The notes under the pieces: model-generated
Told to the model about the DNA's origin: nothing
The model's input: only the letters and a program-made list of their open reading frames with translations
The model's database searches: none
Part shown: piece after piece, positions 11,592 through 51,500 of the stretch
Layout: every line of letters begins with the position of its first letter
Numbering within the stretch: position 1 is the first letter of the stretch
DNA from: Candidatus Dormiibacterota bacterium
GTDB lineage: Bacteria > Chloroflexota > Dormibacteria > Aeolococcales > Bog-877
NCBI GenBank assembly: GCA_027339635.1
Contig: DAHWNZ010000006.1
Span: forward strand, 6,500 to 70,499
Direction: 5' to 3'
DNA length: 64,000 nt
Program-made: the position numbers and the translations under genes

Positions 11592-13364
11592 TCAGTCCGG
11601 CAGTAGGCTCCTGGCCCTCAGGGCGACTCCGATGACCACTCTAGCCTCGGGATCATCCAGGGCCATCCCCAAGAGCGCCTCGATGCGCTGCACACGATAG
11701 GCCAGGGTGTTGATATGGATCCGCAACGACCTGGCGGTCGCGCTCTGATTCCAGCCATGGGAGGCCAGCCCCTCTAGAGTCGGCAGCAGAGGTGTCCGGT
11801 GGCTCTCCTGGTACCCGAGCAGGGGACCCAGGCTCTCCTCAACGAAGCGTCGCAGAACCTCTGGATCGCGCACCTCAAGCAGCAGCCGAAACGCCCCTAG
11901 CGACCGGTAGGAGGTGACTGCCGCACGTTGTTTTGCCCGATGGATGAGGCGCAGAGCCTCACGCGCCTCCTCATGCGCCCGGTGCAACCCCTGCGGCGAA
12001 CTCGTCCTGCCCCCGATTCCGACGGAGAGGGACAGGGCCTTCTCAAGACCTCCGGCCAGGGCTTGGATTCTGCGGCCCAGCTCCTCCATGGCCTCAAGGT
12101 TTCGCGTGGAACCTGTTTCCCCCGGAGGAGCGGTGGGGACCAGGAGCACAAGCGAGGTGGCCCGAACCACCAACATTGAGCCCGGAGCGACCAGGGCGCA
12201 CAGCCGCTCCAGGTCGCGCTGGAAGCGGTCCTGAAGGGGATGACCCTGCATCGCCAGCGCCGCGCGCTCGTCATCCGGCTCCAGCACGACCACCCATGCC
12301 TGCTCCGGTATCCGGTAACCCAGACGCTCGGCCGCGATGGCCAACCTCCGGATCTCCGCCGGATCCCTCTGATCCGCCAGCAATCCCTCGAGGAGGTCGC
12401 CCCTGAGGCGGCGCTCCACCTCGGCTGCCGCTCGCTCCTTCAGCAGCTCCAGAGCGATCACGGTCGCCCCGTGCTCCAGGGCGCGCCGGCGGCCCGGTGA
12501 CGCCTGGGCCAGAGACCCCTCCAGGGCCAGGACCGCCGCGAGCGCAGCCCCGGCGCGGACGGGGGTCAGGGTCATGGGCGAGCGGCCCCTCGGACCCCGC
12601 TGCTCGATCGGGGTCGAGGCTGACGAAAGCGCGGCCGGTATCGGGATCCTACGGGCAGGCAGCCCACCGCCCGCGCCGTGCTCAAAGCGAAAGCCCGCAG
12701 GGTCGTACAGCCCCACCGGGCCCTGGGCAAGGCTGGCGATGGCATCGAGGATGTTGTCCAGGCCGGCGCCCTGGAGCACGAGCTGGGTGAATCGCTCATG
12801 GACTGTCTGGGAGCGTCGGATCTCCTCAAGCTGCCCCTCCAACTGCCGTTGTAGTTCGCTGCGTTCGAGGACTCCGGCGATGGCGCCGGCGATGGCGGAG
12901 AGGAAGGCGACCTCGTCCTGCCTGAAGTCGCGGCGGGCCGAAGACTGTACGTTGAGAACCCCCACGATCCGAGGCCCGGCCTCGATGGGCACCGAAAGCA
13001 TCGAGGTGAACCGCTCCTCGTCAACTCCCTCTATCCACTTGAAGCGGGGCTCCCTGGATACCTCCGGGACCACCAGGGCTCGTCGCTCCGCGGCGACGGT
13101 TCCCGTCACCCCCTCCCCCACCCGCATGAGAAACCGCCCCACCGCCTCCTGCTGCAGGCCATTGGTCGCCGTGAGCACCAGCCCATCCTGCTCGCGGTCG
13201 TAGAGGTAGAGGGAGCAGACGTCAGCCTCCATGGCGAGGGTTGTCTCCCGGATCACCAGCTGCAGGAGATCGTCCCTCCCCATGGTCGAGGCGGCGGTGA
13301 CCGAGAGGCGCTGCAGGAACAGGAGCTCCCGAAGTTGGCGGTCCGGGGGCGTGGATGCCTGCAC
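11592..13364 (-). CDS. GAF-domain / PucR-family (CdaR-like) transcriptional regulator
   Basis: N-terminal GAF-like region; C-terminal PucR HTH (SLRIHINTLAYRVQRIEALLGMALDDPEARV). Confidence 0.8.
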   Translation of the reverse strand: MQASTPPDRQLRELLFLQRLSVTAASTMGRDDLLQLVIRETTLAMEADVCSLYLYDREQDGLVLTATNGLQQEAVGRFLMRVGEGVTGTVAAERRALVVPEVSREPRFKWIEGVDEERFTSMLSVPIEAGPRIVGVLNVQSSARRDFRQDEVAFLSAIAGAIAGVLERSELQRQLEGQLEEIRRSQTVHERFTQLVLQGAGLDNILDAIASLAQGPVGLYDPAGFRFEHGAGGGLPARRIPIPAALSSASTPIEQRGPRGRSPMTLTPVRAGAALAAVLALEGSLAQASPGRRRALEHGATVIALELLKERAAAEVERRLRGDLLEGLLADQRDPAEIRRLAIAAERLGYRIPEQAWVVVLEPDDERAALAMQGHPLQDRFQRDLERLCALVAPGSMLVVRATSLVLLVPTAPPGETGSTRNLEAMEELGRRIQALAGGLEKALSLSVGIGGRTSSPQGLHRAHEEAREALRLIHRAKQRAAVTSYRSLGAFRLLLEVRDPEVLRRFVEESLGPLLGYQESHRTPLLPTLEGLASHGWNQSATARSLRIHINTLAYRVQRIEALLGMALDDPEARVVIGVALRARSLLPD

Positions 13365-13886
13365 TCAGCGGGTCCCTTCGGTGCCCCCGCCGGGGCGCCG
13401 GACGGCTCCCGAGCGGCCTCCGCTCTTGGACTCCATCCGGACTCCACCGATCTCCGCCCAGGGGTCAAGGCTCTTGACCATGTCGATCACGGTGAGCCCA
13501 GCGACGGCGATGGCGGTGAGTGCCTCCATCTCGACTCCCGTCGCGTCCCGGCAGCGGACCGTGGCTCGCAGGAGCACGCGCTGAGTGGCACGGTCAAGGT
13601 CAGCGTCGACCGCGATGTGGCTGATCGCGATCGGGTGGCAGAGCGGAATCAGGTCATGGGTACGCTTCGCCGCCATGATGCCCGCCACCCGGCAGATCTC
13701 GAGCACGTCACCCTTGGTCACCTCCCCATCGGAGATGGCTCCGCACGCGCTCGCGCTGAGCTGCACGAAGCCGGACGCCGTCGCCTGTCTGTCGGAGACC
13801 GCGCGCTCCCCGACATCCACCATCCGCACCCTGCCGGCACGGTCAAGGTGCGAGAGCCGAGCCTGGTCGCCCCGATCCGTGCTCAC
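13365..13886 (-). CDS. moaC: Cyclic pyranopterin monophosphate synthase accessory protein MoaC
   Basis: LSHLDRAGRVRMVDVGERAV...GDVLEICRVAGIMAAKRTHDLIPLCHP; GTG start 13886 overlaps upstream stop (GTGA). Confidence 0.8.
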   Translation of the reverse strand: MSTDRGDQARLSHLDRAGRVRMVDVGERAVSDRQATASGFVQLSASACGAISDGEVTKGDVLEICRVAGIMAAKRTHDLIPLCHPIAISHIAVDADLDRATQRVLLRATVRCRDATGVEMEALTAIAVAGLTVIDMVKSLDPWAEIGGVRMESKSGGRSGAVRRPGGGTEGTR

Positions 13887-14512
13887 GCCGCCGCCGCACA
13901 GGAGGCCGCAGCCTTGGGATCGGACGCTGAAGAGTAGAGGATCCCTATCGTCAGCGAATCTGGGGCCGCTGCGGAACAGGCGAAGCGGAGGTCTCGCCCG
14001 GGAGCGATCAGGGCGAGGTTGAAGGCCGGACGCAGGCCATGGGAGATGAGCTGGGGGAGCAGCTGGGGCAGGCCGAGCTGCCCCACCCACAGCCCGTGAA
14101 AAGTCAAATCGACTATTGAGCCGCCGCCGGAGTTCAGGGTCACCGGCCCGCTTATCACCAGCGGATGGGACAGGACTGCCGTCTGTCCACTCACGACCAC
14201 CTCGCCTCGTTCGATGTGAACCTGAAGATCCGCCAGGCCGACATACCCGCCCAGGGATTGCTGCAGCAGGGCCGTGGCCTCCTGGTCGTCAATCTGCACC
14301 AGGGCGACGGGGGTTTGCGTCGCCAGCGCCTGTTCGATCCCGCGCGCCGCCGACAGCTGCACCGTCGCCGCCGAAGCCGGGGACACCTGCTGGTAGGCCG
14401 GGGGAGTCGTCATCAGGTGCACCCCGTAGGCGATCGCGGCCGCGACTATCAGCACCGGCACCAGGCAACCGAGACAACTCATGGTGCAGCTGCGGCGCAC
14501 CATCCGCAGCAC
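13883..14512 (-). CDS. Membrane-anchored hypothetical protein (possibly DUF2993/LmeA-like)
   Basis: N-terminal TM helix then soluble beta-rich domain; family assignment from memory only. Confidence 0.5.
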   Translation of the reverse strand: MLRMVRRSCTMSCLGCLVPVLIVAAAIAYGVHLMTTPPAYQQVSPASAATVQLSAARGIEQALATQTPVALVQIDDQEATALLQQSLGGYVGLADLQVHIERGEVVVSGQTAVLSHPLVISGPVTLNSGGGSIVDLTFHGLWVGQLGLPQLLPQLISHGLRPAFNLALIAPGRDLRFACSAAAPDSLTIGILYSSASDPKAAASCAAAA

Positions 14513-15356: not shown

Positions 15357-16595
15357 TCAGGAGGGCCGAAGCTGGCCCAGGTGATCGCTATTCCAATCGG
15401 GCGAGTCCTCCAGGGCCGCGGTCCCCCGCGCGATGGCAGACCCGCCAAAGCGTCGCCGGAGCTCGTCCATGGCTCGGTCCACCCGCTCCGAGCGGCGCTC
15501 CACTTGGTCGAACAGCCCCATCTGCGAATCGAGCCGCGCCAGCTGCTCCACCCCTACTCCCAGCAGCCTCACCGGCCGCCCGGCTGGGACGGTGGCCCTC
15601 AGCAGCGGCCGCGCGGCCCGGAAGATTTCGACGTCGGCGCAGGTGGGCTGGCCCAGGGGACCCCTTCTAGCGACGGTCTCGAAGTCCGCGAACCGGACCT
15701 TGATGGCAACCGTCGCGGCGGTGAGACCGTTGGTCCGGAGGCGGCTTCCGACGCCCGCCGCTAGCAAACGGAGCCTCTCCTCAAGGATGGCCTCGTCCGC
15801 CACGTCCTCATCGAAGGTCGTCTCCCTGCTGATCGATTTGGGCGCCGTGGGCACCACCACCGGAGCGGGGTCCACTCCCCGCGCGCGCGCCCTCAAGCCC
15901 TCGCCACCCGGGCCCAGAACCTCGACCAGAAGAGAGGTCGGGGCCGCGGCCAGTGCCCCCAGGGTGTGGATCCCCAAGAGACGCAGGCGTTCGGTGGTCT
16001 TGGGCCCAGCCCCGGGCAGGCGTGCCACCGGCAGCGGAGCCAGAAAGCGCTCTTCGTCGCCTGGATGGACTACCACCAGGCCGCGCGGCTTACGCAGGTC
16101 CGAGGCTATCTTGGCGACGGTCTTGGAGGTGGCCACGCCCACCGAGGCGGGGAGGCTTAGCTCGCTAGCTATCCTGCCCTGGATCTCGCGGGCAATGTCC
16201 GGGCCGCTCCCGTGGAGGAGTTCGCAGCCACTCACGTCCAGAAAGGCCTCGTCCAGAGAGCCCGGCTCCACCAGCGGCGTGTAGTCGGAAAAGATGCCGA
16301 AAACCTCCTTGGAGACCGCCGCATAGTGCCCGATGTCAACCGGCAGCACGATCAACTCAGGACAGCGGCGGAAGGCCTCGGACAGGGACACGGCCGAGCG
16401 CACTCCCCGTGGCCTGGCCTCGTAGGAAGCGGCGGCGACCACGCCACGGCCGGGGCGCCGCCTCTCTCCGGGGTGGGACTCGACGCCTCCTCCGACCGCC
16501 AGCGGTCGACCGGCCAGCTCTGGCCGCCGCCTCAGCTCGCAGGAAGCGAAGAAAGCGTCCAGATCAACGTGGAGGATGGTGCGCGGGTACGGCAA
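15357..16595 (-). CDS. dinB: DNA polymerase IV (Y-family)
   Basis: MPYPRTILHVDLDAFFASCE N-terminus; 412 aa. Confidence 0.9.
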   Translation of the reverse strand: MPYPRTILHVDLDAFFASCELRRRPELAGRPLAVGGGVESHPGERRRPGRGVVAAASYEARPRGVRSAVSLSEAFRRCPELIVLPVDIGHYAAVSKEVFGIFSDYTPLVEPGSLDEAFLDVSGCELLHGSGPDIAREIQGRIASELSLPASVGVATSKTVAKIASDLRKPRGLVVVHPGDEERFLAPLPVARLPGAGPKTTERLRLLGIHTLGALAAAPTSLLVEVLGPGGEGLRARARGVDPAPVVVPTAPKSISRETTFDEDVADEAILEERLRLLAAGVGSRLRTNGLTAATVAIKVRFADFETVARRGPLGQPTCADVEIFRAARPLLRATVPAGRPVRLLGVGVEQLARLDSQMGLFDQVERRSERVDRAMDELRRRFGGSAIARGTAALEDSPDWNSDHLGQLRPS

Positions 16596-16613: not shown

Positions 16614-18404
16614 TCAGCTGGGATCCCCCAGGGTGGCGGAAATCAGCTGCTCCACCGGCTCCATCCTATGCCTCAGGGATGCCTCGAGCTCCGCCGCCAG
16701 GAGCCCCAGTTCCTCCCGGATTGCCCCTAGCGCATGCTCTCGGGTCACGACGAACGGCTCGCCTGAGCGCCGCTTCAATTCGACCCCTCCGGCATCCAGG
16801 GAGCGCGGGGAGATGGTCACCCGAAGCGGCATGCCGCGCAGGTCGGCGTCGGCGAACTTCACCCCGGGGCTGATATCCCGATCGTCATAGAGAACCTCGA
16901 TGCCGAAGGCCACCATCTCCTCATAGAGGGCGTCGGCCGCGGCCCGGACATCCTCACGGCCTCCGACCGCCACCAGGGCGACCGCGAAGGGGGCGAGAGA
17001 GATGGGCAGGGCCAGGCCACGCTCGTCGTGGTGTTCCTCAGCCGCGCAGGCCAGCATCCTTCCCAGGCCTATCCCATAGGAGCCCATGACGACCAGGCGC
17101 TCGCGCCCCTCCTCATCGGCATAGGTCGCGCCCATTGCCCGGCTGTAATCGGTACCGAGCTGAAAGATATTGCCGAACTCTATCCCGCGACGCAACTGCA
17201 GCTTTCCAGGGCAATTTGGGCAGGGCTCGCCGTCCTGGGCAGAGGCCAGCCTGGCAAGGCGCGCGTCCGCCGCGTCGCGGAGGAGGTTGAAGTTACGAAC
17301 ATGCCAGCCGGGACGGTTGGCACCAGTGACCAGATTGCGTCGCCTGGCAAGGACCTCGTCCGCGACCACCGTCACCCCCTGCAGGCCCAGTGGAGACATG
17401 TATCCGGGTACCCCGCCGGAAGCGGCGATCTCCTCGGCCGTGGCCGGGCGCAGCTCCAGGGCCGAGGTGGCGTTGCGCAACTTCGCCAGGTTGACCTCGG
17501 AGTTACCCGGCACCAGCGCCAGGACCAGCTCGCCCTCCTGGTCACGGGCCCGCTGGACCCAGTAGGCGACACTCTTTGAGATCCGCTCCGGGGCGATCTC
17601 GAGGAGTCGCGACACGTCGGCCACAGTCGTGGCCGATGGGGTCTCGACCTCCTCCAGCGGCAGCTCCGGCTCGGTCTCCGGCTCTGGCAGGCGGGGTTCA
17701 GCCACCTCCTGGTTGGCGGCGTAGCCACAGTCCGCACAGAAGATCAGGGTGTCCTCGCCGACGTCTGACAGATACATGAACTCATGGGCCATCCGACCCC
17801 CCATCATGCCCACGTCTGAGAGCACGGCCGCCACCGGCAATCCCGCCCTTGAGGCGATGCGGAAGTAGGCCCGGAAGTGGAGGCGGTAAGCCCTGCCGAG
17901 GCCTTCCTCGTCCCGATCCAGGGAGTAGGCGTCCTTCATCACGAACTCTCTGGTTCGGATCAACCCGCCGCGAGAGCGGGGCTCGTCGCGGAACTTGGTC
18001 TGAATCTGATAGACGATGCGCGGCAGGTCTCGGTACGACGAGACCTGGGAAGCGGTCAGGTCGGCCACCACCTCCTCATGGGTCATCGCGAGCGCCATGT
18101 CCCGCCCGCGACGATCCTGGAAGCGGACCAGGGTGGCATCCACCTTGTCCCAGCGCCCGCTGCGCCGCCAGATCTCGCCCGGATGGACCACAGGCATGGA
18201 GATCTCCTGCCCCCCGATCGCATCCATCTCCTGGCGCAGGATGGTCCTGATCTTCTCCATGGACCGTGCCCCGAGGGGCAGCAGGCTGAATATGCCCGCC
18301 GCCAGCTGCTGTATGTATCCCGCCCGCAGAAGCAGCTGATGGGAGACGAGCTCTCCCTCAGGGGCAGAGCGCAAGGTGGTGCCGAACATCTGAGTGACGC
18401 GCAT
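16614..18404 (-). CDS. proS: Proline--tRNA ligase (bacterial type with editing domain)
   Basis: Class II aaRS motifs; start placed at ATG 18402-18404 (MRVTQMFGTT); 68-aa ORF-track N-extension rejected. Confidence 0.9.
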   Translation of the reverse strand: MRVTQMFGTTLRSAPEGELVSHQLLLRAGYIQQLAAGIFSLLPLGARSMEKIRTILRQEMDAIGGQEISMPVVHPGEIWRRSGRWDKVDATLVRFQDRRGRDMALAMTHEEVVADLTASQVSSYRDLPRIVYQIQTKFRDEPRSRGGLIRTREFVMKDAYSLDRDEEGLGRAYRLHFRAYFRIASRAGLPVAAVLSDVGMMGGRMAHEFMYLSDVGEDTLIFCADCGYAANQEVAEPRLPEPETEPELPLEEVETPSATTVADVSRLLEIAPERISKSVAYWVQRARDQEGELVLALVPGNSEVNLAKLRNATSALELRPATAEEIAASGGVPGYMSPLGLQGVTVVADEVLARRRNLVTGANRPGWHVRNFNLLRDAADARLARLASAQDGEPCPNCPGKLQLRRGIEFGNIFQLGTDYSRAMGATYADEEGRERLVVMGSYGIGLGRMLACAAEEHHDERGLALPISLAPFAVALVAVGGREDVRAAADALYEEMVAFGIEVLYDDRDISPGVKFADADLRGMPLRVTISPRSLDAGGVELKRRSGEPFVVTREHALGAIREELGLLAAELEASLRHRMEPVEQLISATLGDPS

Positions 18405-18445
18405 GGAGCACAAGTGTACGAGCGCCGTCCGCCGTCCTGGGAGCG

Positions 18446-19183
18446 CTACGCCCGACTCGCCTCCACCAGCCGGGGAAGCTCCTCCCAGGTGCCCAGTTGG
18501 GGCTGGTACGACCCGGGGGGCAGGGCTCCCGGGGCAGCGATCGCGGTCATACCCATCGCGGTCGCTCCCTTGAGATCCGCCTCCATCTCGTCGCCAACGA
18601 ACCAGCACCTGGAGGCCGCCACCCCGAGCTGAGACAGCAGCGCTCGAAACACCTCCGGTGAGGGCTTGCGCCAGCCCACCTCACTGCTCAGGACGATCGT
18701 GTCGAAGCTTTGGGCGAGCCCCTGGCGCTCAAACATCGCACGCATAGTCTTGGCCGGATACGGAGCGTTCGACAGCATGCCCAGGCGGAGTCCCTGGCGC
18801 CTCAGCAGGGGCAGGGTGGCGACCGCCCCTCGGTCCGCCTCCACCGATCCTCCCCATGCCCCCTGCAGGACCTCGCAGGCCAGCTCCACCTGGCTCTCGC
18901 GAATGGTCTTGCCCAGCAGCCCGCGCAGCACCTGGCCGTAGATGTCGAGGATCTGCACCTCGTGCCTGGGGTCCCGGTTGTGAGCCTCATCCACGAGCCG
19001 GTCCACCTCCTCCTCGACCCGGTTGCCGAAATCGCTCTCCGGTACTGGGAGGTGGCTACTGTCCACCTCAAGCAACGTCAGCACGGCCTGGCCGGCCGCG
19101 ACCAGAGCGCCGCCTGGATGCACGATCCTGGCGAGTGTCCTCCCGTAGTCGAAGCCGATGGCGTCCGGCGCCGGGAGGGTCAA
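18446..19183 (-). CDS. HAD-family hydrolase (haloacid-dehalogenase-like, DxYG nucleophile motif)
   Basis: IGFDYGRTL motif I; WFVGDEMEADLKGA motif IV. Confidence 0.7.
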   Translation of the reverse strand: MTLPAPDAIGFDYGRTLARIVHPGGALVAAGQAVLTLLEVDSSHLPVPESDFGNRVEEEVDRLVDEAHNRDPRHEVQILDIYGQVLRGLLGKTIRESQVELACEVLQGAWGGSVEADRGAVATLPLLRRQGLRLGMLSNAPYPAKTMRAMFERQGLAQSFDTIVLSSEVGWRKPSPEVFRALLSQLGVAASRCWFVGDEMEADLKGATAMGMTAIAAPGALPPGSYQPQLGTWEELPRLVEASRA

Positions 19184-42912: not shown

Positions 42913-43635
42913 TCAGCCCGCGCTGAGAATCTGGATGCAGTGGTCGACGTCCTCGGAGTACAGATTCGACGGTGGTGCCGCCGGCAGCGCCCCCCGGTTG
43001 CGGGGCAGGTAGAACCCGAAGGACGGCGACGGGTTCACGACCGCGACCGGAATCGAGGTCTTCACCGGAGGGAAGACCGCTAGCAGCCACACCGAGGCGC
43101 CAGGATTGACGTCGGCGGAACAGACGGAAAGGCGGTTGCTGGCCAGCACCAGGATCGGCCGTATCGGCTGGTAATACGTCTGCTGCAGTGACGTGAGCTT
43201 TCCGGAAGGGTCGAGGTTGTTGGTCCCGCCGAACTTGGCCGCGGTCTCCAGGACCGTCTGGGTCAGGCCTACGCCACAGGTGGACGCCCCCGGGTTTTCG
43301 GCCAGTGCCACGACCTCCAGAAGCTCGCCGAAATGAGACAGGCTGGTGGCATCGCGTTCCTCTGAGGTCGGCAGCAGGGGCAGGACGTCCGCCAGCGGCA
43401 CCAGGCGTGAGTAGTAGAAGTAGATCCTGGTCTGGTCGACGTAGAACCCTCCATCCGGGCTGCAGCTGTCCAGTCCCGAGTCCAGGGGCTTGGCCGAACC
43501 CTTGACGGGCAGGCCGGCGACCAGGTCCTTCACCGCCTGGGACGCCGAGGTCGGCGAGCTGCCGCACGAGCTGACGAGAATTGTTGCGATCACGGCCAGA
43601 AGTAGAGCCGCGATGCTGTGGCGGCGTGCCGGCAA
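42913..43635 (-). CDS. Hypothetical lipoprotein
   Basis: Lipobox ILVSSCGSS after signal peptide. Confidence 0.55.
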   Translation of the reverse strand: MPARRHSIAALLLAVIATILVSSCGSSPTSASQAVKDLVAGLPVKGSAKPLDSGLDSCSPDGGFYVDQTRIYFYYSRLVPLADVLPLLPTSEERDATSLSHFGELLEVVALAENPGASTCGVGLTQTVLETAAKFGGTNNLDPSGKLTSLQQTYYQPIRPILVLASNRLSVCSADVNPGASVWLLAVFPPVKTSIPVAVVNPSPSFGFYLPRNRGALPAAPPSNLYSEDVDHCIQILSAG

Positions 43636-43652
43636 GAACGGCCCCGCCCTGT

Positions 43653-44225
43653 TCAGCTGCTGCCGACCGGCTCGGTCGCCAGCAGGTCGGAGCGGACGAA
43701 GATCGAACGTAAAGCGTAGCCCGCCTCCTCGATCCTGGCCCGCCCTCCTTCCTCGCGGTCCAGCAGGGTGTAGATGGCGACGATCTTGGCTCCCGTCGCC
43801 TCAACCCGCGCCGCGGTCCGCAGCAGAGACCCTCCGGTGGTCAGAGCGTCGTCGACCAGGGCCACGCGGTCTCCCGGCCCTGGCGGCGGGCCGGCGAACG
43901 TGCCCCCGGCCCCGTGCTCTTTCACCTCCTTGCGCACGATGAAAGCGCCGACCCGGGGCGCTCCGTCGAGGGCGCTGCAGAGCGCTATCGCAGTCACCAT
44001 GGGATCGGCACCGAGCGTCGGGCCTCCGACCCTGGAGACCGCGTCCTCCCTGGCCCAGGCGACCATCTCCCGTCCGATCAGGAGGGATCCAACTGGATCC
44101 AGGGTCACCATCCGGCCATCAAAGTAGTAGTTGCTGCGCCGTCCGCTGGCGAGCAGGAAGTCGCCCTCCCTGAAGGCCAGCCCTCGCATCAGGTCTAGCA
44201 GCGTCCTCCTTTGCCCGGCGTCCAT
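43653..44225 (-). CDS. pyrE: Orotate phosphoribosyltransferase
   Basis: PRPP-binding motif VALVDDALTTGGS. Confidence 0.9.
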   Translation of the reverse strand: MDAGQRRTLLDLMRGLAFREGDFLLASGRRSNYYFDGRMVTLDPVGSLLIGREMVAWAREDAVSRVGGPTLGADPMVTAIALCSALDGAPRVGAFIVRKEVKEHGAGGTFAGPPPGPGDRVALVDDALTTGGSLLRTAARVEATGAKIVAIYTLLDREEGGRARIEEAGYALRSIFVRSDLLATEPVGSS

Positions 44226-44227
44226 TC

Positions 44228-45712
44228 TCAGGGCGCCTCGGCTGCTCGCCAGCGCAGGATGGGATTCCTCGCTGCCGTCACCTCGTCGACGCGGCCGACC
44301 GGAGCATTGTGAGGGGCTGTGCGCAGCGATTCGGGGTCCGCTCTTCCCTCGTCGAGGATGGAGATCACAATCCGCGCCAGCTCGTCGAGAGAGCCCTTCG
44401 ACTCGGTCTCTGTGGGCTCGAACATCATGGCTTCAGGAACCGTGATCGGGAAATAGACGGTGGGAGGATAGATGCCGTAGTCGATCATCCGCTTGGCTAT
44501 ATCCAGAGCCCTCAGGTCTGGTTGCGCGGATCGTCTGGGAGTCGCCACGAACTCGTGGAAGCTGTCGCTGTCTACCGCGACTGGGAGCCGGCCCTCAAGC
44601 AGGTGGCGCAGGTATCTTGCGTTCAGGACGGCGTCTGTGGCGACCTGACCGATGCCATCGCCGTAGGCCCTTATGTAGGCGTAGGCCCTCGCCAGCATCC
44701 CGAAATTCCCGTAGAAGGCCCGCACCCGGCCGATGCTCTCGGGCCGGTCAAAGTCGAGGTGGAACGAGTCGCCGTGGCGCACCACCCTCGGCACCGGCAG
44801 ATAGCCGGCCAGAGCAGGGCTGACGCCGACCGGTCCGGCTCCCGGGCCACCGCCCCCGTGGGGCGTCGAGAAGGTCTTGTGCAAGTTGAGATGGACCACG
44901 TCGAACCCCATGTCTCCCGGACGTGCCAGCCCGACCAGGGCATTCAGGTTGGCGCCGTCGTAATAGACCAGCGCACCAGCCTCGTGGGCAAGGCGGGCCA
45001 TCTCCTCGATGTTGCGCTCGAAGATTCCCAGGGTGTTGGGATTGGTCAGCATCACCGCGGCGACCTCCGGGCCGAGCTTGGAGCGCAGGTCGTCCAGGTC
45101 GACGGTCCCATCCCCGGCGCTCTTGACCGTGATCACAGAAAACCCGCACTGCACAGCGCTGGCCGGATTGGTCCCGTGCGCGGTGTCGGGAATGATCACG
45201 GCCCGGCGGGCGTGGTCCTCCCGGCTGCGATGAAACGCCTGGATCATCCGCAGCCCGGTCCATTCGCCGTGGGCCCCGGCCGCTGGCTGCAGCGACACCT
45301 CCCCCATCCCGGTGATCTGGCAGAGGTATCGCTCCAGGTTCCACATCAGCTCAAGCGCCCCCTGGATGGACGACTCCGGCTGCCATGGGTGAATGTCGCT
45401 GAGGCCTTCGAACGAAGCCACCTGCTCATTGACGGCCGGGTTGTACTTCATCGTGCAGGAGCCCAGCGGGTAGGCGCCCTGCTGCAGGTTGTGATTGCGC
45501 CGCGCCAGCCGCCCGAAGTGGCGCGCCAGATGAGGCTCGCTGAGGGCGGGGATCAGCGCTCTGCGGCTTCGGGCCAGCGAGGCTGGCAGCCCCTCGGCCA
45601 ACCCCGGCCCCTGGACGCCAGCCTCCGGAAGCTGGGGCCCGGTCCCCGGCTCCGTGGCCACCTCGAATATGAGTGGCTCCTCTCCGGCCCAGGCGGACGC
45701 GGCGGCGCTCAC
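44228..45712 (-). CDS. gcvPB: Glycine dehydrogenase (decarboxylating) subunit 2
   Basis: PLP-lysine context HLNLHKTFSTPHGGGGPG; GTG start overlapping gcvPA stop (GTGA); 74-aa ORF-track extension rejected. Confidence 0.9.
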   Translation of the reverse strand: MSAAASAWAGEEPLIFEVATEPGTGPQLPEAGVQGPGLAEGLPASLARSRRALIPALSEPHLARHFGRLARRNHNLQQGAYPLGSCTMKYNPAVNEQVASFEGLSDIHPWQPESSIQGALELMWNLERYLCQITGMGEVSLQPAAGAHGEWTGLRMIQAFHRSREDHARRAVIIPDTAHGTNPASAVQCGFSVITVKSAGDGTVDLDDLRSKLGPEVAAVMLTNPNTLGIFERNIEEMARLAHEAGALVYYDGANLNALVGLARPGDMGFDVVHLNLHKTFSTPHGGGGPGAGPVGVSPALAGYLPVPRVVRHGDSFHLDFDRPESIGRVRAFYGNFGMLARAYAYIRAYGDGIGQVATDAVLNARYLRHLLEGRLPVAVDSDSFHEFVATPRRSAQPDLRALDIAKRMIDYGIYPPTVYFPITVPEAMMFEPTETESKGSLDELARIVISILDEGRADPESLRTAPHNAPVGRVDEVTAARNPILRWRAAEAP

Positions 45713-47082
45713 AGTGCCGCTCCAGCCTCGACGAAGGTCGGGGCCATCTCCAGGACGGCCTGCTCGTAGCGGTCCAGGGCGGCCGGGGGAGTCGTCTCCG
45801 TCACAGACACCAGCATCTGGCTCCTTCGGGCGTGGTCGAACCTTCCCAGGGGGAGTCCCGCCAGAATGCCCCGTTCGGCGAGCTTGGCAGCCCACTTCTC
45901 CGCGTCGCCTGGACACTCCAGGACGAATTCCCACAGGAAGTCTCCCCTCGGGTGCGCCACTCCGAATCCAGGAGCGGCCCCCAGCCTACGTGCCAGATCG
46001 TGAGCGCGCCGGTACGAGATGTCAACCACACGGCGCATCCCCGCTTCCCCCATCTTGGCCATGTAGGCGGTGGCGGCAAGCGCCATGAGGGCGTGGTTGG
46101 TGCAGATGTTCGACGTTGCCCGCTCGCGCCGGATGTGCTGCTCGCGGGTCTGCAGCGTGAGGCAGTAGGCCCGACCACCCCGGGCGTCCTTGGTCATCCC
46201 CACGAGCCTGCCGGGCATCCGCCGCAGGAGGTCCTGCCGGCACGCCAGCAGCCCCACCGTGGGACCACCCAGCTGGGCCGGGATTCCCAGCTGCTGTCCC
46301 TCCCCCGCCGCGATGTCAGCCCCCTGGGCGCCCGGAGGCTCGAGCACGACGGAGGCCAGGGGGTCGGCCATGACAAGGGCCAGCGATCCCGCCCCGTGAG
46401 CAAGCTCTACCAGGTCGGCGACCGGCTCTATCAAGCCGAAGAAGTTTGGTTGCCCGACGATCAGGACGGCCGTATCCCGAGCCGCCAGCAGCCGCTCCGC
46501 GGCCCGGGCGTCGGTGACCCCATCCCGGGTTGGGATGAGTTCCAACTCCCCGCCCCGACCGGACGAGTAGGTCTTGAGGACCTCCAGGGTCTCTGGGTGG
46601 AGCGCCGACGAGGCGAGGATCCTTGAGCGCCCCGTGTGAGCCACCGCCAGCAGGGCACCCTCGGCCACCGCCGTGGCCCCGTCGTACATGGAGGCGTTGG
46701 CCACGTCAAGGTCGTAGAGCTCCGCGACCATGGACTGGAACTCAAAGATCGTCTGGAGGTACCCCTGGCTGGCCTCCGCCTGATAGGGGGTGTACGAGGT
46801 GTAGAACTCCGGCCGGCCGATGGTGGCCCGCACGATGGCGGGTACGAACCGGGAGTAGATGCCCCCACCCAAGAAACAGTCCCAGCGGGAGAGCGGGCGG
46901 TTGGCATCCGCCAGACGGCGCATCTCCGCCGTCAGCTCAAGTTCGCTGAGAGGTGGCGGCAGCTCCAGCCTGGGGTTCTGCAGGTGAGCCGGGATCTCCG
47001 CGAACAGGTCGGCGGGGCTGGAGACACCAAGTGCGGCCAGCATCTCCTGGCGGTCGCGGGCGGAGTTGGGCAGGTATGCCAT
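45709..47082 (-). CDS. gcvPA: Glycine dehydrogenase (decarboxylating) subunit 1
   Basis: 457 aa; MAYLPNSARDRQEMLAALGV N-terminus typical of GcvPA. Confidence 0.9.
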   Translation of the reverse strand: MAYLPNSARDRQEMLAALGVSSPADLFAEIPAHLQNPRLELPPPLSELELTAEMRRLADANRPLSRWDCFLGGGIYSRFVPAIVRATIGRPEFYTSYTPYQAEASQGYLQTIFEFQSMVAELYDLDVANASMYDGATAVAEGALLAVAHTGRSRILASSALHPETLEVLKTYSSGRGGELELIPTRDGVTDARAAERLLAARDTAVLIVGQPNFFGLIEPVADLVELAHGAGSLALVMADPLASVVLEPPGAQGADIAAGEGQQLGIPAQLGGPTVGLLACRQDLLRRMPGRLVGMTKDARGGRAYCLTLQTREQHIRRERATSNICTNHALMALAATAYMAKMGEAGMRRVVDISYRRAHDLARRLGAAPGFGVAHPRGDFLWEFVLECPGDAEKWAAKLAERGILAGLPLGRFDHARRSQMLVSVTETTPPAALDRYEQAVLEMAPTFVEAGAAL

Positions 47083-47275
47083 CGGCAGGGGTCCTAAATT
47101 GGGCGCGGTGGGCTCAGCCTGAGTTCAACCTAGAGTTTAGCTGCAGACCGATCCCGTCCCGAGGGGCCAACTCGGGGCCGCGTGGCGGCCGCCAGCCGGT
47201 GTGATCGGGTGCAGGCCGACCCGCGCTTGGCCCGTTCGGCGCCGCTGGTGCCTGGTTCGAGGAGGCCGTTGACGG

Positions 47276-47665
47276 TCAGTGCTGGTCGGCGTCCGCGTAG
47301 GCCTGATAGGCGGCGTCGTCCATCAGCGTGTCCGGAAGCTCCCCGTCGAGCCTCACCTTGACCAACCAACCCCTCTCGTAGGGGTCCTGGTTGACCAGCT
47401 CGGGGGCGTCGTTCACCGCCGCATTGACCTCCAACACTTCCCCGGCTGCGGGGGCGTAGAGATCGCTGGCGGCCTTCACCGACTCGACCGCGCCGAGGCG
47501 AGCCCCCGGCTCCAACCGCGCGCCCACCTGCGGCAGCTCCAAGAAGATCACATCACCCAGCTGCCCCTGAGCGTGATCGGAGATTCCGATGAAAGCCTCG
47601 CCGCCGTCGGCGGGACGCACCCACTCATGGGTCTTGGTGAATTTGAAACCGCTTAGGTCTGGCAA
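47276..47665 (-). CDS. gcvH: Glycine cleavage system H protein
   Basis: Lipoyl-lysine motif ESVKAASD. Confidence 0.9.
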   Translation of the reverse strand: MPDLSGFKFTKTHEWVRPADGGEAFIGISDHAQGQLGDVIFLELPQVGARLEPGARLGAVESVKAASDLYAPAAGEVLEVNAAVNDAPELVNQDPYERGWLVKVRLDGELPDTLMDDAAYQAYADADQH

Positions 47666-47692
47666 CTTGGTCCTCCTCCCTGTGGGAGACTG

Positions 47693-48796
47693 CTACTGTC
47701 CGGGCCGATGGTAGAAAGGTAACGGGACGACCGTCGCCTCCGCCCACAGTTCCGGCTCCTGCCGCAGGCGCACTTTGAGCATGGTGCCTGGGGCGGCCAT
47801 CTCCCGCCTCACGTATCCCATGGCGATGGCGGTGCCGACGGAAAATCCGAAGGAGCCACTGGTCACCACCCCAACCTCCCCGGAGTCGGCGAATATCGCC
47901 TGGTGGGGGCGGGCGATCTGGCGCGGCCCCAGTTGGATTCCCACAAACGCCCGGGTTGGTGCCTCCGAGATACGTCGCAGTGCGGTGCTGCCCAGGAAGG
48001 CTCCCTTGGCCAGTTTGACCACCCACCCCAGTCCGGCCGTGATCGGGTCAGTTCCCTCGTCGATGTCCTGGCCGTAAAGGCGCAGCCCAGCCTCCAGCCG
48101 CAGAGTGTCGCGGGCGCCGAGACCGGCCGGCATGAGGCCGTACTCCTGACCGCGCTCATAGAGCGCTGTCCAGATCGTCTCGGCCGCCTCGGAGGGTCCA
48201 TACAGCTCGAATCCGTCCTCTCCCGTGTAGCCGGTCCTGGATAGGCGCAGCCTGACACCGGCGACCGTGCCCGGGCGGTGGTGGTAGTAGCGGATTTCCT
48301 GCGGGCTGCCCTCGGACACCAGAGGCTCCAGGATCTCCAGAGCCCGTGGCCCCTGCAGCGCAATCAGAAAGGTCTCCGCCGAGCGGTCCAGGAGCTCCAC
48401 CCCCGCGGGGGGCAGATGCTGCCTCATCCACGCGAGGTCGGCGTCGTGGCGGGCGGCGTTGATCACACACATGAACTCTTCACGGTCGCGATAGACCAGG
48501 AGGTCGTCAACGATCCCGCCATCCTCCCGACACATGACCCCATACAGGGCACGCCCCTCGGCCAGCTTGGAGACATCGTTGCTCACCAGGTTCTGGAGAT
48601 AGTCGAGGGCCCCGCTGCCGCGCACCATCACCTCTCCCATGTGGGAAACGTCGAACAGGCCCGCCCGCCGGCGCACGGCTTCGTGCTCCTCCCGGATGCT
48701 GCGGTACTGCATCGGCATGATGTAGCCACCGAAGGGCGTCATGCGCGCGCCGAGCTGGCGATGAATCGCCCCCAAGGGGACTTCTATGTCAGTCAA
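47693..48796 (-). CDS. gcvT: Aminomethyltransferase (glycine cleavage T protein)
   Basis: TTG start overlapping upstream stop (ATTGA); GGAGGA SD; FDVSHMGE motif. Confidence 0.9.
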   Translation of the reverse strand: MTDIEVPLGAIHRQLGARMTPFGGYIMPMQYRSIREEHEAVRRRAGLFDVSHMGEVMVRGSGALDYLQNLVSNDVSKLAEGRALYGVMCREDGGIVDDLLVYRDREEFMCVINAARHDADLAWMRQHLPPAGVELLDRSAETFLIALQGPRALEILEPLVSEGSPQEIRYYHHRPGTVAGVRLRLSRTGYTGEDGFELYGPSEAAETIWTALYERGQEYGLMPAGLGARDTLRLEAGLRLYGQDIDEGTDPITAGLGWVVKLAKGAFLGSTALRRISEAPTRAFVGIQLGPRQIARPHQAIFADSGEVGVVTSGSFGFSVGTAIAMGYVRREMAAPGTMLKVRLRQEPELWAEATVVPLPFYHRPGQ

Positions 48797-49332
48797 TCTT
48801 CCTCCATCTCCTCGAGCGTCTCCAGCAGTTCGCGATCATGTTGGGCGGCGGCTTCCGAGGCGGCCTGACGCAGCTGCCTCACCCGCTCCTCGGGCCACCC
48901 CAGGTGGTCCGCCAGTTGACGGTCGCTCGGGGGGGCTCCAAGCTCTCTGCGCATCTCAACGTCCGCCGCGAACACCACCTCTGCGTCCCGCGCCCACCGC
49001 TCATCCTGCTCTCTGGCGCGCTCCTCCTCCGCCAGGGTGGCGCGGATCGCGGCGGCCACGACCTCGCGTGCCTGGCGCTGAAATTCCGCCGGGGTGAGCG
49101 GGGTCTCCCCGGAGAGCCCGTGCACCAGTTTCAGCAAGGCTGTGGTGCCCTCCTGAAAGAGATCACCGACCGGGGTTCCCGGCCGGTCCACACTGGTCGC
49201 CTGCTCGAGCGCTATCCACAGGTGGTGCTGCACCAACTGCCGCCTCGGGTCCTGGTCGAGGTTCTCGTAACCGACCGTGGCCAGCAGCCCGGCAATCGCC
49301 TGCTCGCCCAGGGGTGGGAACTCCGCGACCAT
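48793..49332 (-). CDS. Truncated sigma-70-like protein (regions 2.1-2.2 and 3.0 only; no region 4)
   Basis: 179 aa, strong GC3 bias; RRQLVQHHLWIALEQA...GDLFQEGTTALLKLVHGL matches sigma region 2.1/2.2; SDRQLADHLGWPEERVRQLRQAA matches region 3.0; translationally coupled to gcvT. Confidence 0.6.
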   Translation of the reverse strand: MVAEFPPLGEQAIAGLLATVGYENLDQDPRRQLVQHHLWIALEQATSVDRPGTPVGDLFQEGTTALLKLVHGLSGETPLTPAEFQRQAREVVAAAIRATLAEEERAREQDERWARDAEVVFAADVEMRRELGAPPSDRQLADHLGWPEERVRQLRQAASEAAAQHDRELLETLEEMEED

Positions 49333-49461
49333 TTCCCTCAGGGTCCGGGTCTCGTCTGACGGCGCCGAAGCGGGCTTGGGAGTGGGCACGGACCCGAGTA
49401 TAGGCTCGGTTCGGCGAACGGGAGGGATCTCGCGGCGGATCGGTATTCGTACACTCAGACG

Positions 49462-50904
49462 GTGCCACCCCGCGCCATGCGAGTACCCCCCGACCAAGAC
49501 CTGGTGGTCTTCGGAGCGACCGGGGACCTGGCCCGCCGCAAGCTGCTGCCCGCACTCTATGAGCTGAGTCGCCAGGGGCTCCTCCCACGCCGCGGGGAGG
49601 TGGTGGGAACTGCGACCCGGGACCTCGACGATGACGGCTTCAGGGCCTTCGCCCACGACGCGATCGAGGAATTTGCCAGAACCGGGCTCGACGAGCCGAG
49701 CTTCGCGGCCTTCGCCAAGCGGCTGCGCTACGTGCCCGCCATCTCCGACCCAGGGCCCAAGCTGGCCAAGGTGCTCAAGCTCCCGCACCGGATCGTGTAC
49801 CTGGCCGTCCCCCCCTCGTCCTTCGCCCCGATCCTGCAGGAGTTGAAGGATGCCGGGCTCTCCAGGGGTGCCTCCCTCATCATCGAGAAGCCGTTCGGGC
49901 ATGACCTGGAGTCCGCCAGAAAGCTGAACCAGGCGCTGCATCGCATCGTGCCCGAGGAGAGGATCTACCGCATCGACCACTACCTGGGCAAGGAGACCGT
50001 CCAGAATCTCCTGGTTTTCAGGTTCGGCAACACCCTTGTGGAGCGCATCTGGAACCGCGATGTGGTATCCCACGTCCAACTGACTGTTGCTGAAGACATT
50101 GGAGTTGAGAATCGGGGACATCTGTATGAGGAGACCGGAGCGCTCAAGGACATAATGCAGAACCACCTCTTCCAGCTCCTCGCCCTCACGTGTATGTCAC
50201 CTCCCAGTTCCTTCGATCCTGAAGCATTGAGAGATGAGAAGGTCAAGGTCCTTCAATCGATTCGGCCGGTGGCCCCAGCGGAGGTGGTCCGGGGTCAATA
50301 CACCAGGGGCTCGGTCAACGGCAAGCTGATGCCGGGGTACCGGGAGCTTGACGGAGTGTCCCCGGATTCGAACACGGAGACGTATATAGCACTCCGACTC
50401 GCGGTCGACTCCTGGGCGTGGGCCGGGGTCCCCTTCTATCTGCGCTGCGGCAAGGCGCTGGTCACCAGGCGCACGGAGATCATGCTCTTCTGCCGGGACG
50501 TGCCCCTGCATCTCTTCGAGGGTACGGGAATAGAGGCTCTGCAGCCCAACCGGGTGACGATCAGGATCCAGCCCGATGAGGGAATCTCATTCTCTTTCGT
50601 GGCCAAGGAGCCGGGGCCTGTGGTCCGGGAGCAGGGGGTGAGGATGGACTTCTCCTACGGGAAGTCATTCAAGACCGAGCCGGCGGAGGCCTACGAGCGG
50701 TTGCTGCACGACGCCCTGCTGGGAGACCACACCCTCTTCATACGGCAGGACGAGACTGAGTGCGCCTGGGCCGCCCTCCAACCCGTGCTGGACAACATGC
50801 CCCCGATCCGGCTTTACCCGGCTGGAAGCGAGGGCCCCGCCGAGGCCCAGAACCTGATGGAGTCGGGGGCCTGGCACAGCCTGGCCCACCACGTCCAGGA
50901 TTAA
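49462..50904 (+). CDS. zwf: Glucose-6-phosphate 1-dehydrogenase
   Basis: VVFGATGDLARRKL, RIDHYLGKE motifs; probably leaderless from GTG 49462 (TACACT -10 six nt upstream); alternative ATG 49477. Confidence 0.9.
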   Translation: MPPRAMRVPPDQDLVVFGATGDLARRKLLPALYELSRQGLLPRRGEVVGTATRDLDDDGFRAFAHDAIEEFARTGLDEPSFAAFAKRLRYVPAISDPGPKLAKVLKLPHRIVYLAVPPSSFAPILQELKDAGLSRGASLIIEKPFGHDLESARKLNQALHRIVPEERIYRIDHYLGKETVQNLLVFRFGNTLVERIWNRDVVSHVQLTVAEDIGVENRGHLYEETGALKDIMQNHLFQLLALTCMSPPSSFDPEALRDEKVKVLQSIRPVAPAEVVRGQYTRGSVNGKLMPGYRELDGVSPDSNTETYIALRLAVDSWAWAGVPFYLRCGKALVTRRTEIMLFCRDVPLHLFEGTGIEALQPNRVTIRIQPDEGISFSFVAKEPGPVVREQGVRMDFSYGKSFKTEPAEAYERLLHDALLGDHTLFIRQDETECAWAALQPVLDNMPPIRLYPAGSEGPAEAQNLMESGAWHSLAHHVQD

Positions 50905-51500
50905 GCGCTGGCGCGCGCCGGGGCCTGGTCGGGGACCAGCTGGTCGGCTTCGATCCATCCGACCTCTGTCTCAGGCTCCTCGCCGGCCCTGACCTGCACC
51001 CACCTGCCCTGCTGCCGCAGCGCCCGCAGGGGAGAGGCCGGACGCACAGACCTGCCGCGCTCGGCTTTGTGGTCAGGCTCCTTGAAGATCGGATATCCGG
51101 TCCCGGCCCAGCTCTGCACTATCGTGCAGGGGCCCGGGGGGATGCTGCGGAAGTGATACACGGTGTGCCCATCCCGCTCGCCACGGCCGAGGATCCTCAG
51201 GAGATTCGTCGCTCGCATGGTGGCGCTGCGCTCGCCGTCGGCGGTGATGGTCACCCTGGTGCCGCTGCTGGTGGACTCGCATTCGATGCGGATGCGGTTC
51301 TTCGGGTAACGCACCTTGGACCACTGGCCGAAGAGCCCATTGGCAAGGTCCTGGACCACTTCCGCGGTGTGGTCATCGACAACCCTGAAGCTGAATGGCG
51401 GCAGGCCAGCCACCTGCTCGGCCACCGCGAACACCTCGCGGGGCGGCGCGAACACCACCGCTTCCCAGCGGTCGTGGCGCTTGGGGCCGAGATAGAGCAT
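50901..51500 (-). CDS. Hypothetical protein with C-terminal SH3b-like segment
   Basis: Start at ATG 51498-51500 (MLYLGPKRH); C-terminal GRWVQVRAGEEPETEVGWIEADQLV. Confidence 0.5.
   Translation of the reverse strand: MLYLGPKRHDRWEAVVFAPPREVFAVAEQVAGLPPFSFRVVDDHTAEVVQDLANGLFGQWSKVRYPKNRIRIECESTSSGTRVTITADGERSATMRATNLLRILGRGERDGHTVYHFRSIPPGPCTIVQSWAGTGYPIFKEPDHKAERGRSVRPASPLRALRQQGRWVQVRAGEEPETEVGWIEADQLVPDQAPARASA

Follow-up and report, generated by a model that had tools for sequence, protein, structure and literature searches.

A short sigma-70 homologue without region 4 precedes the glycine-cleavage genes in a Dormibacterota genome

The stretch of DNA analysed here (64 kb, referred to as the window) encodes, directly upstream of its glycine-cleavage genes, a short sigma-70-like protein that we call half-sigma. 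It is a real gene under purifying selection, and its short form is conserved in more than 100 loci of Dormibacterota type. The protein is truly homologous to group 1/2 sigma factors and lacks region 4 and the greater part of the 3.2 linker. The family is undescribed so far; it belongs to the sigma-70 superfamily by homology and fails two features of a working sigma factor, namely the residues that read the −10 element and region 4. The literature on truncated or region-4-less sigma factors, sigma mimics and Dormibacterota sigma factors contains no description of it, it has no name in any curated family model, and its relatives are labelled either "sigma-70 family" or "hypothetical".

The gene and the cluster downstream of it are arranged as follows:
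48793 to 49389, minus strand: half-sigma coding sequence, most likely from GTG 49389 to TGA 48795 to 48793, 198 amino acids plus stop
49330 to 49332, minus strand: ATG chosen in the original prediction, an internal Met codon with GAGGGA before it, not conserved
48793 to 48805, minus strand: half-sigma/gcvT junction, reading GGAGGA (48805 to 48800), aga, TTGA
47693 to 48796, minus strand: gcvT, 367 amino acids (NCBIfam NF001567, 394 bits)
47276 to 47665, minus strand: gcvH, 129 amino acids (NCBIfam TIGR00527, 143 bits)
45709 to 47082, minus strand: gcvPA, 457 amino acids (NCBIfam NF001696, 550 bits)
44228 to 45712, minus strand: gcvPB (NCBIfam NF003346, 681 bits)
43653 to 44225, minus strand: pyrE, orotate phosphoribosyltransferase, with which the cluster ends (NCBIfam TIGR00336, 116.9 bits; cut-off 106.8)

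The genes gcvT, gcvH, gcvPA, gcvPB and pyrE, as well as the divergent zwf upstream of half-sigma (551 bits), all score above the curated cut-offs of NCBIfam, and these identities agree with the order of sigma-like gene, gcvT, gcvH, gcvPA, gcvPB and pyrE that had been read from the DNA before. The 3' end of the half-sigma gene reads GAG GAG ATG GAG GAA GAT TGA. Its stop codon (TGA, 48795 to 48793) overlaps the TTG start of gcvT (48796 to 48794), and GGAGGA lies 3 nt 5' of this TTG, so that the earlier description of an aTTGA overlap with a Shine-Dalgarno sequence inside the last half-sigma codons is confirmed. Similarly, the stop of gcvPA and the GTG start of gcvPB (45712) share the sequence GTGA.

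The minus-strand ORF from 48793 to 49332 that was claimed originally is present in the sequence. Its 179-residue form, starting from the ATG at 49332, is replaced here by one of 198 residues, as GTG 49389 is conserved instead. The start of the gene is most likely this GTG, 57 nt upstream of the earlier ATG: six related loci (L016-L021) have CTG in place of ATG 49332, and in the family alignment homologous residues extend N-terminal of it. Mechanical extension of the ORF to 50166 was discarded as coding, since that stretch is antisense to zwf.

When sequences clustered at 90% were searched, 19 relatives with 58-100% identity were found, every one of them 179-229 aa long. An exhaustive profile search yielded 71 representative clusters below 1e-10. 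The top ~90 matches to the profile are almost all 160-230 aa in length and most cover most of the profile; full-length sigma factors are common only from about 1e-9. Length and motifs of half-sigma stay constant down to ~27% identity. The original prediction had considered that the orthologues might be full-length sigma factors, whereas the relatives found are proteins of 160-230 aa. Pairwise dN/dS in close pairs was 0.10-0.22 for half-sigma and 0.10-0.19 for gcvT in the same pairs, values that are indistinguishable. An assembly or frameshift artefact is ruled out by the more than 100 short relatives and by this gcvT-like dN/dS. An apparent deletion of the 3' half in one related locus (L022) proved to be a 100-N assembly (scaffold) gap.

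Homology to sigma-70 was evaluated with curated models, family profiles and a predicted structure. The window protein matches Pfam Sigma70_r3 with 27.2 bits (cut-off 25.3; residues 124-161 of the 179-aa form) and gives no match to Sigma70_r2; in NCBIfam, the generic sigma-70 model and, over its N-terminal part, the RpoH model match it below threshold. Across the family, Sigma70_r3 matches 65 of 73 members and Sigma70_r2 weakly matches 48 of 73. Thus, of the regional models proposed as a check on the sigma assignment, that of region 3 matches above its cut-off; region 2 is supported by the sub-threshold NCBIfam matches, the weak Sigma70_r2 matches in relatives and the predicted fold (below). 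Weak Sigma70_r4 matches, unmapped to positions, occur in 7 of the 73 members; as members are 160-230 aa long, they have no room for region 4 after region 3.1. In a phmmer search against the PDB, the window protein was colinear with RpoD (E 4e-4). The family profile matched RpoD/SigA in the PDB with E~1e-16, colinear with residues 338-503 of E. coli sigma70, which reach to the end of region 3.1; the group 2 and 3 sigma factors SigB, RpoS, sigmaF and RpoH scored below RpoD/SigA.

The AF2 model of the protein is confident (pLDDT 92.3, pTM 0.79). Its sigma2 fold superposes on known structures at about 2 Å (1.8 Å for domain 2 of M. tuberculosis SigA), which bears out the earlier expectation of structural similarity to sigma region 2. 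Over the whole chain, the rmsd against holoenzyme-bound sigma factors is ~10 Å. The model has one 51-residue helix (100-150) where sigma has two, those of 2.4 and 3.0. Given the fused 2.4/3.0 helix and the poor whole-chain superposition, either sigma2 or sigma3 may fall short of its canonical site.

The layout of the protein comprises a region 1.2-like N-terminus, sigma2 with 2.1-2.2 intact and 2.3-2.4 degenerate, sigma3 (3.0-3.1) and an acidic C-terminal helix. The motif that corresponds to DLIQEG of region 2.2 is encoded at:
49147 to 49164, minus strand: codons of D76-L-F-Q-E-G81 (gat ctc ttt cag gag ggc)

In sigma70, binding to the beta-prime clamp helices depends chiefly on DLIQEG of region 2.2. 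D76-L-F-Q-E-G aligns with D403-L-I-Q-E-G of sigma70 and is the best conserved stretch of the family. Among 73 sequences, L52, L57, D76, L77, Q79, A84, W165, A180 and D185 are invariant, and E80 is near-invariant (at least 90%). The sigma70 residues Y425, Y430, W433, W434, Q437, T440 and R441 recognise and melt the −10 element; in the alignment to RpoD, half-sigma has A, Q, E, V, A, R and A at these positions. The original view that regions 2.1/2.2 and 3.0/3.1 are kept and that the −10-melting aromatics of 2.3/2.4 are replaced is therefore borne out by colinear alignment to RpoD. It had also stated that regions 3.2 and 4 are absent, which holds entirely for region 4 and mostly, rather than completely, for the 3.2 linker: after region 3.1 the window protein ends with only an 18-residue acidic helix, ...HDRELLETLEEMEED, and other family members have longer D/E-rich tails. 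The family as a whole is acidic (median pI 4.4-4.6, net charge −18 to −23), and the segment equivalent to 2.3/2.4 carries a net charge of −4.

Upstream of the gene, two promoter-like elements were identified:
49397 to 49402, minus strand: −10-like hexamer TATACT within the GCCTATACTC box, 7 nt before GTG 49389
49450 to 49464, plus strand: promoter-like box of the divergent zwf, TACACT (49450 to 49455), then 6 nt and GTG 49462

The 200 nt 5' of the gene were aligned for 17 loci, the window and 16 related ones. The arrangement GCCTATACTC-N6/7-GTG is invariant in 17 of 17 loci, the remaining spacer is poorly conserved, and GAGTnTA is conserved on the opposite strand, on the zwf side. The same box was also found in loci L028 and L029. 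The window copy of the box does not share the reading frame of the half-sigma ORF, indicating a DNA signal rather than coding sequence. Several other gene callers ran through the box, which gave relatives a spurious "AYTR" N-terminus. With TATACT 7 nt before its GTG, the half-sigma mRNA is most likely leaderless, and the zwf mRNA is likely to be leaderless too. Before window ORFs of at least 150 codons, TANNNT-Nx-[AG]TG occurs in seven cases with x=6 and in five with x=7, and at each of the other spacings between 0 and 15 in 0-2 cases. This enrichment suggests that leaderless transcripts are common in this genome.

A leaderless start leaves no 5' leader to carry a riboswitch. Indeed, an Rfam E-value search of positions 43000-51000 returned no family at E<=1, glycine riboswitch included; the original prediction had remarked that the sigma-like gene stands where gcv operons usually carry this riboswitch. 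Within the half-sigma gene there is no canonical −35/−10 promoter able to drive gcvT alone. A terminator-like hairpin inside the gene (49187 to 49165) was dismissed, since the counts of such hairpins correspond to chance and related loci do not have it as a conserved feature. The conserved promoter-like box, the stop/start overlap in the clade of the window (clade A, see below) and the lack of a promoter-like site before gcvT uphold the assignment of half-sigma as first cistron. The arrangement of signals indicates that gcvTHP would be expressed from a riboswitch-free leaderless transcript beginning with the half-sigma gene.

Relatives with an organism name come nearly all from Candidatus Dormibacteria, Dormibacteraeota or Dormiibacterota. 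The exceptions in name are a Nanopelagicaceae locus (L015) and a Verrucomicrobiae sequence (P0235). The former has the gene order of the Dormibacterota loci, so its label is probably a binning error, and the latter label may be one as well. The family is apparently restricted to the uncultured phylum Dormibacterota. A BFVD search gave only ordinary phage sigma factors with weak scores, and a phage origin was rejected. The window holds no second family copy, and its dinB (15357 to 16595) is flanked by proS and moaC and is without an SRPBCC-half-sigma pair, the arrangement in which dinB occurs in clade B below. The single member and the lone dinB fit one copy per genome; the seven members with an NCBI locus tag, a small sample, all have different prefixes.

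About 100 loci were typed by their neighbour genes and placed in a neighbour-joining tree with midpoint rooting. Three clades coincide with three gene contexts. In clade A (33 loci including the window), zwf is divergent and half-sigma is followed by gcvT, gcvH, gcvPA, gcvPB and pyrE; an (A/G/T)TGA overlap joins half-sigma and gcvT in every locus. Beside this clade, the L028/L029 lineage keeps zwf and the promoter box, and gcv genes are absent downstream. Clade B, the largest (~52 loci), has the order DUF4081-GNAT, SRPBCC (Polyketide_cyc2), half-sigma and a convergent dinB, and the half-sigma start usually overlaps the SRPBCC stop. In clade C (9 loci), Band7-NfeD is divergent, half-sigma precedes gcvTHPAPB, a TAGAAT or TACAAT box lies 6-9 nt 5' of the start, and gcvT follows the half-sigma stop after a 4-nt gap or overlaps it by 13 nt. 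Clade C proteins are ~28-31% identical to the window protein, and the GcvT proteins ~47%.

The reading of half-sigma that we favour, although we rate it at somewhat below an even chance, is that of a modulator that binds core RNA polymerase, either as a sigma competitor or in a delta-like manner. Half-sigma would dock on core polymerase through its region 2.2 surface on the beta-prime clamp helices. Such binding is suggested by the conservation of DLxQEG, the only observation from which we infer it. As the core-binding surfaces on sigma region 2 often bind anti-sigma factors too, conservation of the motif is no proof of polymerase binding. Being acidic, and having neither −10-reading residues nor a domain that binds the −35 element and the flap, half-sigma should be incapable of promoter-specific initiation. 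One option is that it competes with sigma, so that holoenzyme formation would be shifted or damped; another is a delta-like action in which the acidic tail would help to keep nucleic acid off idle polymerase. Placement in a housekeeping operon (gcvTHP or GNAT-SRPBCC) would set the level of half-sigma, which need not regulate those genes. That the gene context differs between clades speaks for a general role and against a gcv-specific one.

Polymerase need not be the target, and half-sigma could instead be a sigma mimic that titrates an anti-sigma factor or similar regulator, following the logic of PhyR and NepR. We consider this unlikely. Its appeal lies in the sigma fold combined with degenerate DNA-reading residues, and in clade B its translation is coupled to that of a ligand-binding protein of SRPBCC/START type, a possible sensing partner. 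The sigma-like domain of PhyR captures the anti-sigma factor NepR. Sigma mimicry is well established for PhyR, whose promoter- and core-binding determinants are both described as degenerate (PMC8103513). In half-sigma, however, the core-binding motif is the best conserved one. Moreover, half-sigma contains neither a receiver nor any other switch domain, none of its conserved neighbours in clades A and C is anti-sigma-like, and a NepR-like neighbour was found at none of the about 100 typed loci.

Quite unlikely is a split sigma factor, in which a sigma2/sigma3 docking module would work together with an unlinked DNA-recognition or region-4 protein, after the model of gp55 and gp33 in phage T4 or of SigO and RsoA. 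In B. subtilis, SigO and RsoA divide sigma functions between separate polypeptides that are co-encoded in yvrI-yvrHa (PMC8103513), which is not the case here. A region-4-only partner had been proposed in the original prediction; phmmer with three region-4 queries found no region-4-like ORF in the 64-kb window, and none lies adjacent in about 100 loci covering all three contexts. This lack of a nearby region-4-like ORF weakens the analogy to RsoA/SigO. In addition, half-sigma keeps no −10-binding residue, and the equivalent surface is acidic.

Half-sigma opens the gcvTHP operon in two deep clades and is joined to gcvT closely or by an overlap in both, although the GcvT proteins of the two share only ~47% identity. 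This brings up a dedicated regulator of the gcv operon, autoregulatory or glycine-responsive, which would replace the riboswitch that Rfam did not detect between 43000 and 51000. With B and C as sister clades and A across the midpoint root, gcv-linked clades stand on both sides of the root and the linkage may be ancestral. Such linkage across lineages in which half-sigma is ~28% and GcvT ~47% identical could reflect a functional tie to glycine cleavage, which would count against the modulator. We nevertheless regard a dedicated gcv regulator as distinctly unlikely. The link is not family-wide, as the largest clade is located behind GNAT-SRPBCC, and one lineage has kept zwf and lost gcv; both make a gcv-specific role doubtful. 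The wider neighbourhood (ParA, Band7, NfeD ... gcv) is itself syntenic, so that adjacency may be inherited rather than selected and is weak evidence for a gcv-specific function. Furthermore, half-sigma has no recognisable ligand-binding domain, and its acidic surface makes operator binding unlikely.

A functionless, decaying sigma remnant or mis-called ORF, to which the weak matches of the window protein to curated sigma models and the frequent label "hypothetical" might point, is effectively refuted by the dN/dS of close pairs, the constancy of length and motifs, the conserved promoter box and start, and the confident predicted fold. The remaining probability falls to other functions.

To our knowledge, Dormibacterota have no cultured members. 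More tentative than the modulator itself is the broader proposal of a Dormibacterota "pseudo-sigma", present phylum-wide, that would fill the sigma2 and sigma3 sites on core polymerase without reading promoters and would represent a new class of regulator. If true, it could compete with sigma, store polymerase or take part in recycling as delta does, with a possible link to the slow growth or dormancy that has been proposed for Dormibacterota. If half-sigma binds core polymerase, it would provide a protein-based means of tuning how sigma factors compete or how much polymerase is available, different from anti-sigma factors, Rsd/Crl-type proteins and 6S RNA. One small soluble protein would then also offer a tractable biochemical handle on transcription in Dormibacterota.

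Several known systems resemble half-sigma in part. SigO and RsoA together rebuild sigma2 and sigma4, whereas half-sigma carries sigma2 and sigma3, with no sigma4-type gene adjacent or in the window. The late sigma factor gp55 of phage T4 reads a −10-like element in late promoters and depends on gp33 and on the gp45 clamp. Compared to gp55, half-sigma has lost the DNA-binding surface, has no linked partner genes, and is cellular and vertically inherited. Like half-sigma, PhyR has a fold derived from sigma in which promoter reading is lost, and it acts by protein-protein binding (PMC8103513). It consists, however, of ECF-like sigma2 and sigma4 with a receiver, while half-sigma consists of sigma2 and sigma3, with no receiver found. 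The delta subunit of Firmicutes (RpoE), a small protein associated with polymerase, combines a helical N-terminal domain with an acidic C-terminal region, and the latter counteracts non-specific binding of nucleic acid. Delta and half-sigma have unrelated folds and no homology, and we infer no more from the likeness than a possible functional analogue.

The closest relatives are RpoD/SigA, SigB and RpoS, with which half-sigma is homologous and colinear from region 1.2/2.1 to 3.1, and whose DLxQEG motif it has kept. In contrast to them, it is far more acidic, is without region 4, most of 3.2 and all −10-reading residues, and has 2.4 and 3.0 helices that are predicted to be continuous. Accordingly, half-sigma is not expected to be a promoter-specificity factor. 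Sigma factors couple two activities, core docking and promoter reading. A protein inherited vertically across a phylum, with its docking motif under strong selection and its promoter-reading elements discarded, would be a natural separation-of-function sigma.

Both zwf and the half-sigma gene, which are transcribed in opposite directions (window 49397..49464), apparently give rise to leaderless mRNAs, judging from the sequence at their starts. Each is preceded by a -10-like box:

49402..49397, minus strand: TATACT, -10-like box of the half-sigma gene
49450..49455, plus strand: TACACT, -10-like box of zwf

Since these boxes lie just 47 bp apart, the two putative promoters would stand back to back, and the genes could therefore be co-regulated. 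In L028 and L029, two loci of a lineage beside the window's own clade (clade A), gcv has been lost downstream, and the half-sigma gene is still paired with zwf.

Starts of this kind were found across the whole window, where 12 long ORFs open with TANNNT-N6-7-ATG/GTG and other spacings account for 0-2 ORFs each:

3421, 49462, 55124, 57111 and 60525, plus strand: TANNNT-N6-7-ATG/GTG starts
11298, 19683, 23154, 26487, 37948, 49389 and 51500, minus strand: TANNNT-N6-7-ATG/GTG starts

This spacing peak at 6-7 nt suggests that leaderless mRNAs are seemingly frequent in this Dormibacterota genome. Further genes of the window are:

11592..13364, minus strand: GAF-PucR-type regulator
13365..14090, minus strand: moaC
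15357..16595, minus strand: dinB
16614..18608, minus strand: proS
50901..51500, minus strand: ORF (about 199 aa) that matches SH3_3 weakly

The last of these, kept in all clade A loci, has zwf on one side and a FemAB-like gene on the other.

The neighbourhood was also compared in clade B (L023-L026 and L052-L111), the largest group of related loci. Here, two genes, one for a DUF4081-GNAT acetyltransferase and one for an SRPBCC/Polyketide_cyc2 protein, precede the half-sigma gene, which in many loci overlaps or adjoins the SRPBCC stop codon. On the upstream side is a divergent DAHP synthase gene, and on the downstream side a convergent dinB; farther out, past dinB, several of these loci carry an ECF sigma factor.

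Two records bear taxon labels at odds with Dormibacterota. Locus L015 (DATKSV010000115.1) is labelled Candidatus Nanopelagicaceae, which is likely a MAG binning or label error because its gene order is that of the Dormibacterota loci. The Verrucomicrobiae label of the half-sigma protein P0235 (HUY96258.1) may also be wrong, as the zwf-half-sigma arrangement is seen at P0024, which represents its cluster.

Within the half-sigma coding sequence, a GC-rich hairpin of 10 bp with a T-containing tail after it (49165..49187, minus strand) is probably due to chance, since it is restricted to the window and, in partial form, its closest relative.

Another candidate signal was found between gcvH and gcvPA:

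47083..47275: gcvH-gcvPA spacer
about 47134..47139, minus strand: CTAAACT/CTAGACT-type motif

This spacer measures 145-265 nt in the window's sub-clade, and 32-38 nt or nothing in other loci. An Rfam search of 43000-51000 returned no match in it. The long spacers have the CTAAACT/CTAGACT box in common, about 50 nt upstream of gcvPA, and it may be an internal promoter. If so, the gcv cluster would fall into two transcription units.
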